Shown here in pieces: positions 55,637 to 64,000 of a stretch of DNA of 64,000 nt. Every line of letters begins with the position of its first letter. Position 1 is the stretch's first letter. The DNA comes from Kondoa subrosea. Its lineage: Eukaryota. Position numbers and translations under genes: made by a program. The notes below the pieces were generated by a model, which made no database searches, was not told the origin of the DNA, and saw only the letters and a list, made by a program, of their open reading frames with translations. Location of the stretch: assembly GCA_039545335.1 (NCBI GenBank), contig BCIN01000002.1:1315118-1379117 (forward strand), written 5' to 3'.

Positions 55637-57286
55637 CTATTTCTTTGGTGTGTAAGGATATTGAGCAACCCAATGTCTCGCAATCTCTTCTCGAGTAGCA
55701 ACCCAAACATCTATTCCACAAATTTGTCAGCCGCTACTTACTTAGACGAAAGACTTAAAGCCCGAGCGTTGACTGACCTTCTTTCGTAGAGATATACTCG
55801 ACAAACTTCTTCAGAGCTTGGAATCGACCAGGACGTCCAACATAACGAGCATGAAGAGCACACGCTAAAAGAAAAAGTATGAGAGGGAAACCATCAAACT
55901 TCAAACTGTAAGGTCAAATTGCAAACGTACTGATATAAGCGGCTTTTCCTTCAAGTCCTTCTTCATAGACGGTATCGAAAGTATCTCGCATCTGTTCGAA
56001 GAAAGCGTTACTGGAACCAAAACCTCCAGTAATGTAGAATTTGAAGTCCTGTTATATGGCTCACCGGATCAGTAGGCGAAAACAAGAAGCCACTTCATTT
56101 CACGTACATTATTATCGTATGTGTAAGGCATCATGAGTAGACCTTCCTCGTCAGAGCCTAGCGGTCGAGGGATCCAGTAAGGCAGATCGTCGGCATAAGC
56201 TAATGAACAGTTTTGTCAAACAGAACACACAGCGTGTACCGCAAAAGCAACTCACTGTCAGCTTGGTACAGCAATTCTAGTCCTAGTTCTTTGTAAACTT
56301 TGCACAGTAATGCCCGGCTGCGAGGCGAAGGGCGCCCTTTAATCACCATTAATAATCAGCTTGTGTTTGCCGGGGTGCAATTCGACTACTCACCATAGTA
56401 CCAGCCAACAGGAGCTTTACCAGTCTTGCTACATTTCTGGAATGCTGCAATGCCTTCCCTGATCAACTTCTCCTCTTCATCAGCTGGCATGTAGCGATAA
56501 TTGATCCATCGATGAGCATGAGAGGCTGTCTCATGACCAGCATCGTCACAAGCATGAGCTATGAGAGGATTCTTCAGGTAAGCCAATCCCAAAGCGTAGA
56601 TAGTACTAAGAATGATGGATTCAGATCAAGCTCAGAGAAAGCGATAACTTTTGCCCTCACATTCGATAGTCGTATTTCTTGAACAGGTTGAGTAATCTCC
56701 ACATACCGACTCTGAACTGAAATTTAGCCCTCTCAAGCGGCAAATTATGTTGACCTTCACCTAGATCCGTATTCGAATTGCGTTTCGCATGCAAGATCTC
56801 GCTCGCCCATGAGCGGAGCAGTCTTAAGAGCAATTAAGCATCATCGAAGTCTTCGAAGAGCCTTTACACTGACCGGACCAGTCTCTTGAAGCATACTGCG
56901 TACACTTCAGTCTGGCAGTTACTTAGCTGGAACAGCAGCTTACACTTCTGAGCCTTCGTCTCCATTGTCCACGGTATTCTCTGCTCCTTCCTACTTATAC
57001 CTTATAAGTCTTCATTATAGACCGCGCGATCATGGAGAACCTGCCTCGTAGTTCTGTGTGAGCTAAATCAGCATCTGTTGCGACATTGCAACTAGTGAGA
57101 TCACCTACGATCACGAAATTGACCGCAATCTTAGCTCCGTTGGGCCATTTGGGGTCTGGTCTGTCTGGCCCATATCCAATAAGGTCCCGCTCCCTGACCA
57201 GAGCGTTAAAGCGGGACCTAATATTTAGGGTTAAGCATCACATACGGGAAGACTGTGAGAGCTTCGGTTTCTTGTTTGGTAAGCAT
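55637..57286 (-). CDS. puuE: PuuE-type (metal-independent allantoinase-like) polysaccharide deacetylase-fold hydrolase
   Basis: ERDLIGYGPDRPDPKWPNGAKIAVNFVINYEEGAE, FEYGSRVG.WRLL, ASHAHRW, GWYYGRPS, YADDLPYW, PYTYD, GRPGR, WVATREEIARHW. Confidence 0.9.
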
Positions 57287-57339
57287 AGTGTATTGTAGAT
57301 GCGTTGTTTAATTGTGCGTAGACGTGTGATGGCAAGGGA

Positions 57340-57495
57340 GATAGGCTGCAGGTATTGATAAAGATACCTTCGGAACCGCTTTGTCGGATCGGATGCTGAA
57401 TGTTGCCCACTTTCGCTTGAGATAAGTGCAGAGACAGTCGGATAAAGGTCGATAAGCCATGTTTTTGCCAAGTAGCGATGAGCGGATAAGTTGCA
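57340..57495. promoter_or_regulatory. GATAA cluster plus CGG repeats upstream of the PuuE-like gene
   Basis: GATAA at 57357, 57421, 57441, 57451 and 57485; CGG-N11-CGG-AT-CGGATGC at 57371-57396. Confidence 0.7.
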
Positions 57496-57637
57496 TAACG
57501 GTTGTTGGCTGAAAGCAAGACGCTGGAGCTCAGATCGCTCTAATTGTACAAAATTCAGTGAAATTGACAATACATTGATATCGCGTTCTCACCGAAGCAA
57601 AAGCGTTCAGCATGCGCTTTCCTTTTTGTGAATACTT

Positions 57638-62453: not shown

Positions 62454-62533
62454 AAACTTCTGATCGTTTTTACAAAAGGTCGCTGCACATATACCTCACT
62501 GTCGACACGACGACTCAGGAGAAGGTCCAAAAC

Positions 62534-63765
62534 CTAAGCAAGAAAACGTACCGCAAAACGAGAAAAGCCGCCATCGATCTTGAGTGTTGACCCAGTCACA
62601 TAGCTGGAAGCATCGGAAGCAAGGAAGAGAATCGCTTCAGCAATCTCCTCAGGTCGTCCCTTTGTTGTCATGGAGTGAGAGGAGCATATAATGAGAACGA
62701 ACAGACAGACCAGTCTTTCCAGCATTGTCTTTCCAGCGAAGGATGGCCATTGATCTTTCGGAATATTGGACATCATCTAAGACAGCTGAATCAGATACAG
62801 GCTGCTAATATGCTAGCATGGGGCTCACAGGAGTCTCGATAGCTAATTGCAGTGGTGAGTTAAATTCGAGAAGCATGAGAATGAGACTTACGTCCCGGAG
62901 CAACGCAGTTCACTCTGATTCCCTCTGTCCCTAATTCTGCTGCAGCTGTCTGAGACATTTGTTAATCTAAAGTATGATGGAAGGGGAAGTTTACGAACCA
63001 GTGCGAGACCTCTTACCGCAAACTTTGATCCGCAGTAAGCCGCAAGTCCAGGAGCACTAATGTAATGTAAGAGACATAGTGAGTGCAGCTGATTCATGCT
63101 TACCCGTCAAGACCAAGTTGTGAACCGACCAAAACTATTGAACCTTTCGATTTTGCTGGTGGTGAAGAAGACCGTATAGCTCTGATGGAATGTTTCATAC
63201 CGAGGAAAGCTACGGAAACATGAGCTGAAAACAGCAGGAGACTTTCAACTGCTCACGCCCTTTTATATTGACTGAATAGAGACGATCCATAACGTCCACC
63301 GACAGCTCTGATATCGGTGTCTGGTCGTGTGTGATACCTGCACACTGAATGGAGATATCAAGTCGTCCAAATCGCTCGACAGTTCGCCTGTGCTTGAAAC
63401 ATGAGCGTTGTCCTGCAAATCCTGCTCAACCTACGCTGCGTAATTCTGGACTTCCACCTGCTCGAGAATGAGCACAATCACTGGCTTTCTGACAAGAGCT
63501 CACTTCTTGTGTAACATCGGCGGCCAACAGCAGACATTTTGCCTTGTTTTCTGTTGAAAGTATTGAGATTGCCTTTTCAAGTGCTTCCAATTTCAAGTCC
63601 ACCAGTCCAATGCCATCGATACCAGCTTGTAGAAAAGCCTGTACTGTAGCCAATCCAATTCCGGAGGCGGCTCCCTAATAAATGCTCGAATTTGTCATCT
63701 TCAGTTTCCTCTATTTTGTCTTGACTTACCGTCACTATGGCAACTTTTCCTTTCAGAGTATGCAT
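62534..63765 (-). CDS. Classical short-chain dehydrogenase/reductase
   Basis: [78 protein letters not shown]. Confidence 0.93.
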
Positions 63766-63974
63766 GCTTGATAGACTCAGCTTGTTCCTTGCACTTGCTT
63801 GGGGTTTGCTTGGACACGCGAGATAAGCAATTCCTTCGATCACATGTCTCTGTCGGCTGTATCTTATCGGATGCTTGCATTTGAGGAAGTTCCGAATTGA
63901 AGCGACCTTCCGTCCGGAAGTGGAAACGAACTCTGCTCTCTATCAATTCCCATTACCCTGCTTCCATCTTCACA
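63766..63974. promoter_or_regulatory. SDR promoter (probably bidirectional) with GATAAG boxes and CGG elements
   Basis: GATAAGC 63822, CTTATC 63863, CGG-N11-CGGATGC 63854-63874, inverted CTTCCG-TC-CGGAAG 63907-63920. Confidence 0.65.
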
Positions 63975-64000
63975 ATGCTCAACGAGAAAGAAAAGGATTT
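63975..64000 (+). CDS. Possible start of a further gene divergent from the SDR (MLNEKEKD...)
   Basis: ATG in ACAATG context, open to the window edge; only 8 codons visible. Confidence 0.3.

Follow-up and report, generated by a model that had tools for sequence, protein, structure and literature searches.

The last 8.4 kb of the 64,000-nucleotide stretch of Kondoa subrosea DNA analysed here (the window) raise the question of whether four neighbouring genes – for a PuuE-type hydrolase (G1), an MFS transporter (G2), a cytochrome P450 (G3) and an SDR (G4) – work together, and on what kind of compound. A sequence-only reading of the window had proposed a co-regulated catabolic cluster that oxidises and hydrolyses an N-containing heterocycle and so releases its nitrogen. 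To our knowledge, clusters for the catabolism of N-heterocycles have been well worked out in few fungi, and there only among ascomycetes.

The four genes named in that reading are present, intact and intron-rich between positions 55637 and 64000 (Table 1), and Pfam, NCBIfam and the gene models confirm their identities. Pfam was run on 15 exon-sized pieces (five of G1, three each of G2 and G3, and four of G4); the G1 and G2 models were built by spliced alignment to orthologues, and those of G3 and G4 ab initio after training on G1 and G2 introns, with some junctions uncertain. The divergent promoter region that had been assigned jointly to the MFS and P450 genes measures exactly 258 bp, and the ATG said to face the SDR promoter is found at 63975-63977 on the plus strand. 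A fifth gene, transcribed divergently, may begin at this ATG, with only eight of its codons inside the window. The left border of the cluster is the housekeeping gene RPB5, and neither an amidase, an OYE nor a transcription factor is encoded within the cluster as seen (55637-64000). The only amidase gene in the 64-kb window, at ~44.5-45.7 kb and so ~10 kb to the left, was considered as a cluster member and rejected: its product shares 28% identity with the cluster amidase of Agaricales, and uL24m, GH18, an RS-rich protein and RPB5 are encoded in between.

Table 1. Features of the four-gene region, in positions of the window
Feature	Position	Strand	Remarks
G1, PuuE-type (CE4 / NodB-fold) cyclic amidohydrolase	55637..57286	-	13 exons, 326 aa; TIGR03212 and spliced alignment
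U1, upstream of G1 (3' flank of G2)	57287..57637	-	5 GATAA/TTATC sites
GCATCCGAT, copy 1	57388..57396	-	102 bp upstream of G1 ATG
G2, DHA2-like (TRI12-type) MFS transporter	57638..59757	-	10 exons, 550 aa; Pfam MFS_1, spliced alignment
U2, G2/G3 divergent promoter region	59758..60015	.	258 bp
GCATCCGAT, copy 2	59919..59927	-	162 bp upstream of G2 ATG, 89 bp upstream of G3 ATG
G3, cytochrome P450	60016..62229	+	~14 exons, ~505 aa; ab initio, PF00067
Tandem repeat, 50 bp x 2	62352..62453	.	convergent G3/G4 3' intergenic region; 92% matches, score 176
G4, classical SDR	62534..63765	-	~10 exons, ~262 aa; ab initio, adh_short
U3, upstream of G4	63766..63974	-	2 GATAA sites (63822, 63864), 4 HGATAR sites
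GCATCCGAT, copy 3	63866..63874	-	101 bp upstream of G4 ATG
ATG and 7 further open codons, leaving the window	63975..64000	+	read from sequence

The two oxidoreductases carry the signatures of their families. PF00067 matches two of the three G3 pieces (62.7 and 57.6 bits), and the model translation shows an AGTETT I-helix motif together with ESLR (ExxR), PERW (PERF-type) and FSIGGRNCPG (the heme-thiolate FxxGxRxCxG); a protein-atlas query with the C-terminal exon confirmed 'P450'. Three of the four G4 pieces match adh_short or adh_short_C2, and the translation has the TGAASGIG (TGxxxGxG) and YCGSK (YxxxK) motifs of classical SDRs and a C-terminal IDGG.

For the hydrolase, five of six exon pieces match TIGR03212 (allantoinase PuuE, NCBIfam) colinearly, covering profile positions 2-35, 94-162, 184-211, 211-243 and 247-277 with a summed score of 155 bits, while the Pfam profile Polysacc_deac_1 hits one of five pieces below its cutoff (20.3 vs 23.1 bits). 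The Cystobasidium minutum orthologue P0158, 73% identical to G1, matches TIGR03212 over positions 2-297 of 297. It represented G1 when nine proteins were scored against the equivalog cutoff of 424.6 bits: P0158 (328.7 bits) and five other fungal relatives (the range being 292-365 bits) miss the cutoff, as does P0013 (411.1 bits), and two bacterial PuuE proteins exceed it (513 and 539 bits). Structure-sequence scores for P0158 were 269-299 bits against PuuE-type structures, with 284-299 against PuuE itself (3cl6/1z7a; 299 for 1z7a), versus 39.6 bits against 3qbu (HpPgdA), which places P0158 outside the HxnM / HpPgdA-like cyclic imidases (cd10938), whose mark is close similarity to HpPgdA or to the P. 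putida cyclic imide hydrolase.

The spliced G1 model, built on P0158, P0273 and P0280, has a 9-nt micro-exon (57053-57045) with a GC-AG intron after it; a 28-nt first intron was rejected, a 52-nt GTATGT...CAG intron being preferred. Searching with a single 72-aa G1 exon in a word-indexed protein search gave two fragments, and in an exhaustive search most matches were fragments the size of an exon, while the highest-placed one, P0003, is a repetitive protein and spurious. In PuuE, Glu36 and His259 are catalytic and Glu-His-Trp replaces the CE4 metal triad, according to the portion of PMC11424739 that quotes Ramazzina 2008. All of these are kept in G1. When G1 was aligned with 12 relatives, four of them bacterial, the NYEEG glutamates, a GHE..SH..RW stretch and the ..LH.R histidine were invariant, among 60 columns that are the same in bacteria and fungi; the second glutamate of NYEEG in G1 hinges on accepting the GC-AG splice variant. 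Nine fixed differences and two insertions, both short, set the G1 family apart from bacterial PuuE; the fixed differences include the residues flanking the catalytic histidine, G-L-H-C in bacteria versus A-L-H-A in basidiomycetes. 'PuuE-type' is therefore the right name for G1 and 'allantoinase' is not established, because the family scores below the equivalog cutoff.

It could nevertheless be argued that G1 is the organism's allantoinase, a PuuE analogue of DAL1 serving purine catabolism, with G2 perhaps a ureide transporter and the P450 and SDR unrelated to either. The full-length, colinear profile match of the orthologue, its scores against 3cl6 and 1z7a and the conservation of every PuuE catalytic residue checked all speak for this, as does Ustilago maydis, which in the part of PMC8092297 used here is reported with a single 'PuuE1' having an allantoinase-type triad. 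The clustered GATA sites upstream of G1 (see below) are also expected of purine-catabolic genes. We nevertheless think it unlikely, since the fungal relatives fall short of a cutoff that bacterial PuuE exceeds and carry fixed substitutions beside the catalytic histidine, no urate-pathway gene occurs among the 48 long ORFs in the window, and the upstream motif GCATCCGAT marks the P450 and SDR promoters too. Moreover, the paralogues in Strophariaceae adjoin an amidase and an OYE, neither of which has a role in allantoin breakdown.

Two of three G2 pieces match MFS_1 (Pfam), and the spliced model, built on P0163, P0165, P0188 and P0190, is 51-68% identical to its orthologues; its last intron (57843-57791) is uncertain, and leaving it out brings a stop in frame at 57802. 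TIGR00711 (DHA2, the 14-spanner drug:H+ antiporters) is the top NCBIfam match for P0165 (186.4 bits) and P0190 (154.5 bits) and the best match for two G2 exons, in each case below the cutoff of 230.2. PF06609 TRI12 is precomputed on most G2 orthologues, whose names include 'MFS transporter M2' and 'Efflux pump FUS6'. Since most transporters of the DHA2 type export their substrates, G2 suits biosynthesis or detoxification as well as catabolism.

A further idea, which appears distinctly unlikely, is that G1-G4 serve tailoring and export in a secondary-metabolite cluster, with the core synthase encoded past position 64000. A PKS, NRPS or terpene synthase is visible neither in the 8.4-kb cluster, nor in the remaining 55 kb (48 long ORFs scanned), nor in a related 11.2-kb metagenome locus described below; the left border is housekeeping, relatives have a hydrolytic partner gene (amidase), and the GATA sites point to nitrogen control. 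Yet accessory genes in fungal biosynthetic clusters most commonly encode P450, SDR and TRI12/DHA2-type MFS proteins, G2 orthologues bear the TRI12 domain and efflux-pump names, and the window ends 26 bp past a possible further start codon.

The upstream regions contain the elements that the sequence-only reading had described, a CGG-containing motif common to all three and GATAA boxes at the PuuE-like and SDR promoters. The motif is the 9-mer GCATCCGAT, with CGG in its reverse complement; it occurs exactly three times in 64 kb, once in each upstream region and always on the minus strand, with near-identical spacing at G1 and G4 (102 vs 101 bp before the ATG). None of 300 dinucleotide shuffles of the three regions yielded any common 8-mer. 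When segments of matching size were drawn at random from the window in threes, 30 of 5000 such triplets (0.6%) had a common 9-mer. GATAA/TTATC sites upstream of G1 (57357, 57421, 57441, 57451 and 57485) number five in 351 bp versus a mean of 0.74, a count reached by 0.39% of windows of that size. The two GATAA sites upstream of G4 are equalled by 7.9% of same-size windows and the four sites of the looser HGATAR pattern by 0.84%; the G2/G3 region, with one GATAA site, is not enriched. We infer co-regulation of G1-G4 from one short motif, GCATCCGAT, which is absent from the promoters of the related metagenome locus, the one such locus that could be read: its single one-mismatch match falls inside the amidase gene, and its three promoters have no 8-mer in common.

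Are the genes also neighbours elsewhere? Linkage of G1 and G2 was read from shared contig sizes and the order of accessions or locus tags rather than from DNA. Among six other species in which relatives of both were found, they are linked in four, at a spacing of 2-11 genes: Rhodosporidiobolus poonsookiae (JCM10207_002347 with _002349, both on one contig of 393,877 bp), Agrocybe pediades (KAF9556324.1 with KAF9556328.1 and KAF9556329.1, one contig of 87,054 bp), Psilocybe cubensis (XP_047754906.1 with XP_047754916.1) and Psilocybe cyanescens (CVT25_008410 with CVT25_008399, one contig of 51,003 bp). This runs counter to the unlinked orthologues that had been named beforehand as an outcome refuting a cluster. 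In the other two species, Naematelia encephala and Phenoliferia sp., the relatives lie on different contigs. By this indirect route the linkage appears to recur in at least two further, distantly related lineages of basidiomycetes.

A metagenome search with a seven-row hydrolase alignment, from which 79 loci were kept, adds a further relative. Locus L001 (11.2 kb) encodes two PuuE-like proteins in tandem, 95.7% and 91.6% identical to the Agrocybe pediades pair, as well as an amidase and an OYE reductase, and has no P450 or SDR match. It is the only one of the 79 with intron-split PuuE-like copies; the other 78 are judged to be prokaryotic because their matches are unsplit and the G+C content is 0.57-0.63 in the four that were checked (L002-L005). 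In one of them, L046, a PuuE match lies near an SDR match. Strophariaceae have at least two clustered PuuE-like paralogues beside an amidase-signature amidase and an OYE reductase, and Psilocybe cf. subviscida has a fused gene model with an amidase domain and a PuuE-like domain. In a quick tree a single clade of basidiomycete sequences (support 99), separate from bacterial PuuE, holds all the linked hydrolases; the Strophariaceae sequences are sister to a Cystobasidium-like lineage, with other Agaricomycetes outside, a placement that hints at horizontal movement of the module between Pucciniomycotina-like yeasts and mushrooms.

These results also bear on whether the adjacency is mere chance, with no functional link and a coincidental GCATCCGAT. 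Recurrent G1-G2 linkage in distant lineages, three motif copies on one strand with near-identical spacing and GATA enrichment upstream of G1 together make this very improbable in our estimation, even though unrelated genes do become neighbours in compact fungal genomes, a common 9-mer turns up in 0.6% of random triplets, the motif was found after looking, and GCATCCGAT is not seen in L001.

The shared promoter motif, and the neighbourhood of two of the genes in distant mushrooms and yeasts, instead point to a probable, hitherto undescribed pathway that draws nitrogen from a cyclic amide. We give roughly an even chance to a small cluster of co-regulated genes that scavenge nitrogen from a cyclic amide or imide, much as the lower half of hxn, the nicotinate pathway of ascomycetes, does. 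The conserved core would be G1, as a PuuE-type, metal-independent cyclic amidohydrolase, and G2, joined in this genome by the P450 and SDR. A pathway-specific factor would bind GCATCCGAT, ~100 bp ahead of the start codons, with nitrogen-catabolite control supplied by a GATA factor. The P450 may hydroxylate a lactam or N-heterocycle at the position beside its ring nitrogen, after which the SDR could convert the carbinol to a carbonyl, as HxnW does in Aspergillus, to yield a cyclic imide. G1 would then open the ring hydrolytically to a half-amide, from which an amidase – here beyond the window or encoded elsewhere – would free ammonium, and G2 would carry the substrate or a toxic intermediate across the membrane. 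The proposal that an N-heterocycle is opened for its nitrogen gains partial support from the amidase and OYE genes of Agrocybe-type loci, from the imidase activity of PuuE-type enzymes and from the logic of hxn, the last two as given in the parts of PMC11424739 and PMC9304392 used here. No description of such a basidiomycete cluster was found in the literature searched, in line with the earlier reading, which knew of none described with this combination.

More broadly, and only tentatively, basidiomycetes may have independently assembled a lactam/cyclic-imide salvage pathway on a PuuE-type imidase and a DHA2-like transporter, with lineage-specific modules added (P450 and SDR here, OYE and amidase in Strophariaceae) and control through GCATCCGAT and GATA sites. 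If so, a hydrolase-transporter core with exchangeable oxidoreductase/amidase modules would be a second, convergent solution, and would give a role to the 'PuuE1 / Cda1-like' proteins of fungi, widespread but unstudied, to which annotation routinely and wrongly assigns the name of chitin deacetylases. The pathway would also be a source of enzymes of a type in industrial use as stereoselective imidases, and GCATCCGAT offers a concrete handle on finding the regulator.

Three known systems invite comparison. Bacterial PuuE allantoinase (TIGR03212; 3cl6, 1z7a) has its fold and family in common with G1, with a full-length colinear match, but the G1 family scores below the equivalog cutoff, has insertions and fixed differences, and lies in a context without urate-pathway genes. 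The bacterial cyclic-imide pathway proceeds from an imidase to a 'half-amidase', and a hydrolase and amidase are likewise paired in the Agaricales relatives. The imidases BpIH and AfIH, which belong like G1 to the subfamily of 3S6O and PuuE, hydrolyse glutarimides, demonstrated for these bacterial enzymes with 3-isobutylglutarimide in the sections of PMC11424739 drawn on here. They are bacterial enzymes studied as biocatalysts. We know of no physiological cluster described for them with a P450, SDR and MFS.

The closest parallel is hxn, which comprises in order an OYE, an SDR, a CE4 imidase and an amidase under the control of AreA and HxnR (portions of PMC9304392 and PMC8478523), and which according to its authors, in the part of PMC8478523 used here, is not found as a cluster in Basidiomycota. 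In Aspergillus nidulans the lower half consists of HxnT (OYE), HxnW (SDR), HxnM (CE4 cyclic imidase) and HxnN (amidase), and the regulon also includes MFS transporters, controlled by HxnR and the GATA factor AreA. HxnR, HxnS and the flavin monooxygenases HxnX/HxnV have no counterpart among the window's long ORFs up to position 64000, where the only flavoprotein match is a FAD_binding_2 ~40 kb from the cluster. Unlike in hxn, the hydrolase here is PuuE-type rather than HpPgdA/HxnM-type, the transporter is DHA2-like, and a P450 is present where hxn has flavin monooxygenases. The logic of hxn – oxidation of a saturated N-heterocycle to a cyclic imide by an SDR, opening by a CE4-fold enzyme and deamidation, in clustered and nitrogen-regulated genes – is nonetheless echoed here by an SDR and a CE4 hydrolase in one cluster with GATA sites, and in Agrocybe-type loci by the OYE and amidase genes that adjoin the orthologous hydrolases.

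The analysis establishes the identity and integrity of four consecutive genes – encoding a PuuE-type CE4 hydrolase (G1), a DHA2-like MFS transporter (G2), a P450 (G3) and a classical SDR (G4) – that together fill positions 55637-63765 with no space for a further gene, in agreement with the uninterrupted run proposed in the sequence-only reading. The window DNA is fungal and rich in introns (47-67 nt each, mostly GTRNGT...YAG, with two GC-AG). The N-terminus of P0158, the Cystobasidium minutum orthologue and closest annotated relative, supports both a G1 start at 57286 and a first intron of 52 nt, and NCBIfam TIGR03212 ('allantoinase PuuE') is matched colinearly by five of six G1 exon pieces. 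In G1 the first three residues of the catalytic NYEEG motif (N-Y-E) come from a 9-nt micro-exon (57053-57045), and the intron after it (57044-56991) is GC-AG; use of a GT donor 4 nt farther downstream would turn the second Glu of the motif into Ala. The other GC-AG intron is in G2 (59118-59069). The G2 orthologues contain the TRI12 Pfam family, and their top NCBIfam match is DHA2 (TIGR00711), at 154-186 bits relative to a cutoff of 230. For G3 and G4 the exon maps come from ab initio prediction and have some uncertain junctions.

Positions and identifiers of the Kondoa subrosea genes and of related basidiomycete loci
Feature	Position or identifiers	Strand or contig	Description
G1, PuuE-type CE4 hydrolase	57286 to 55637	minus	13 exons, 326 aa; spliced alignment to three orthologues
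G2, MFS transporter	59757 to 57638	minus	10 exons, 550 aa
G3, P450	60016-62229	plus	PF00067 match; I-helix, ExxR, PERW and Cys-ligand motifs in model
G4, classical SDR	63765 to 62534	minus	TGxxxGxG and YxxxK
Rhodosporidiobolus poonsookiae (Microbotryomycetes)	locus tags 002347, 002349	same 393,877-bp contig	
Agrocybe pediades	KAF9556324 vs KAF9556328, KAF9556329	same 87,054-bp contig	
Psilocybe cubensis	XP_047754906 vs XP_047754916		close by numbering
Psilocybe cyanescens	CVT25_008410 vs CVT25_008399	same 51,003-bp contig	
L001, Agrocybe-type locus	1002-8406	OYE minus; amidase plus; two PuuE-like plus	metagenome contig

To the left of the cluster are the housekeeping gene RPB5, then a gene for an RS-rich protein, and then a GH18 gene; the right border is the window end, before which an ATG at 63975 opens only eight codons. 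A tandem repeat (two copies of a 50-bp unit, 92% identical) is located at 62352-62453, in the intergenic region between the convergent 3′ ends of the P450 and SDR genes. Positions 1-51000 are ordinary, mainly housekeeping DNA with many long ORFs lacking a Pfam match; the matches present include a lactonase-like gene, SDA1, an RNase H fragment, a mitochondrial carrier, ribosomal L5, uL24m and GH18.

The decisive new result is the conserved linkage of G1 and G2. The G2 N-terminal exon identified 110 relatives, and P0158 identified PuuE-like proteins in the thousands, the best 120 of which were considered; adjacency was read from shared contigs and from accession or locus-tag numbering rather than from DNA. 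Among the matches listed, relatives of both proteins were found in six other species and are close together in four of them, which runs counter to the unlinked orthologues that the earlier proposal had named as speaking against a cluster. In Naematelia encephala and Phenoliferia sp. the two partners are on separate contigs, one partner being merely a distant relative (46-53% identity). This recurrent linkage contradicts a chance adjacency of the genes, which we regard as very improbable.

Strophariaceae and Hymenogastraceae have at least two PuuE-like paralogues, which lie in tandem or are separated by a few genes. L001, an 11.2-kb metagenome contig (45% G+C), encodes an Old-Yellow-Enzyme (OYE) reductase, an amidase-signature amidase and two tandem PuuE-like hydrolases with 95.7% and 91.6% identity to the Agrocybe pediades pair; it has no P450 or SDR match, and no recognisable gene in the 2.8 kb downstream of the PuuE-like pair. 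A Psilocybe cf. subviscida gene model fuses an amidase domain with a PuuE-like domain, showing that amidase and hydrolase adjoin there too. Public models P0393, P0164 and P0186 include this fusion, a Pet127-MFS fusion from Pseudohyphozyma, and a Phenoliferia MFS model of 819 aa with an extended C-terminus. The K. subrosea window does contain an amidase gene (approximately 44550-45700, minus strand; PF01425, 107.6 bits) some 10 kb to the left of the four genes, and we rejected it as a member because it has 28% identity to the Agaricales PuuE-adjoining amidase and is separated from the cluster by housekeeping genes. The gene types would also fit a piece of a biosynthetic cluster, but no core synthase was found at the locus, elsewhere in the window (in a scan of 48 long ORFs) or on L001, and we consider this explanation quite improbable.

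The upstream regions of G1 and G4, and the divergent G2/G3 region – which is 258 bp long, as first reported – all contain the exact 9-mer GCATCCGAT, whose reverse complement ATCGGATGC includes the CGG of the common motif noted earlier. There are only three copies in the 64 kb (57388-96, 59919-27 and 63866-74), all on the minus strand, which is the sense strand for G1, G2 and G4; they are located 102 bp, 101 bp, 162 bp and 89 bp upstream of the ATGs of G1, G4, G2 and G3, respectively. Dinucleotide-preserving shuffles of the three regions gave not even a common 8-mer (0/300), and with a harsher null of random same-sized triplets from the real window a common 9-mer occurred in 30/5000 and a common 8-mer in 292/5000. 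With one mismatch allowed there are 20 matches relative to 13.5 expected, a number reached in 3 of 100 shuffles. The flanks have only slight similarity, with three additional invariant positions immediately downstream, indicating a short element rather than a duplicated segment. Of the GATAA boxes that had been described upstream of G1 and G4, those of G1 form a cluster (five GATAA/TTATC in 351 bp, a number reached by only 0.39% of same-size windows); G4 has weak enrichment and the G2/G3 region none. This promoter pattern suggests, without proving, co-regulation of the four genes.

P0158 (73% identity to G1) scores 269-299 bits over its whole length against the PuuE structures 1z7a, 3cl6 and 3s6o, and only 39.6 bits against HpPgdA (3qbu), the structural relative of Aspergillus HxnM; G1 is thus PuuE-type and not HxnM-type. 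The six named fungal relatives tested against TIGR03212 score 292-365 bits (P0158, 328.7), all below the equivalog cutoff of 424.6, compared with 513-539 for two bacterial PuuE proteins and 411.1 for protein P0013. In the alignment (60 of 403 columns invariant) G1 retains the catalytic Glu and His, together with the Glu-His-Trp that replaces the CE4 metal triad (PuuE catalytic residues as quoted from Ramazzina 2008 in an excerpt of PMC11424739). Residues of this kind would permit an ordinary allantoinase with the P450 and SDR as unrelated neighbours; we think this unlikely, given the sub-threshold TIGR03212 score, the paralogue expansion beside amidase and OYE genes, and the motif common to the upstream regions. 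PuuE-type enzymes have a substrate range beyond allantoin, and the same excerpt describes hydrolytic cleavage of 3-isobutylglutarimide by BpIH (91% identical to 3S6O) and AfIH. Many fungal PuuE-type proteins have public names such as 'chitin deacetylase 1' or 'glycoside hydrolase/deacetylase' despite the PuuE-type metal-triad replacement, and these are probably transferred mis-annotations.

In a quick maximum-likelihood tree (47 sequences), the linked hydrolases all fall within a single basidiomycete clade (SH-aLRT 99), in which G1 and Cystobasidium (99) are sister to a Strophariaceae group (99). Bacterial PuuE and chytrid sequences group together, and the 'Cda1-like' proteins of ascomycetes make up a clade of their own. 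The basidiomycete clade has nine fixed differences from bacterial PuuE – two of them flanking the catalytic His – and two short insertions. In the same tree the Strophariaceae/Hymenogastraceae proteins group with G1 and Cystobasidium (Pucciniomycotina) and not with other sampled Agaricomycetes, Neolentinus and Wolfiporia falling outside on long branches, a placement for which either horizontal transfer or the sorting of paralogues could be responsible.

A full-text literature search did not find this gene combination described. In the excerpted text of PMC8478523 the hxn authors report Basidiomycota to be without hxn clusters and HxnM paralogues of unassigned role to occur throughout the dikarya, and a Ustilago 'PuuE1' is mentioned without being studied in the portion available of PMC8092297. 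Among systems that have been worked out, the nearest parallel is the nicotinate (hxn) pathway of Aspergillus nidulans, in its lower half. According to excerpts of PMC9304392 and PMC8478523, the ring is first saturated by HxnT (OYE); oxidation of a ring hydroxyl by HxnW (SDR) then yields a cyclic imide, whose ring HxnM (a CE4-fold imidase) opens before HxnN (amidase) releases ammonium. HxnR and the GATA factor AreA control these clustered genes, of which hxnM and hxnW form a conserved divergent pair. The basidiomycete loci carry equivalent kinds of enzymes, and from this we infer a substrate, a reaction order and a mode of regulation, in a scheme to which we give about an even chance. The G3 P450 would hydroxylate a lactam-type substrate beside the nitrogen, the G4 SDR would then form the imide, G1 would open the imide ring, and an amidase encoded beyond the visible region would free ammonium, with G2 as the transporter of substrate or intermediate; under shortage of good nitrogen the genes would be turned on by a factor reading GCATCCGAT together with a GATA factor. 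Unlike hxn, the basidiomycete loci use another CE4 subfamily, and a P450 is added in K. subrosea; this putative fungal nitrogen-catabolic cluster would rest on a different hydrolase subfamily.
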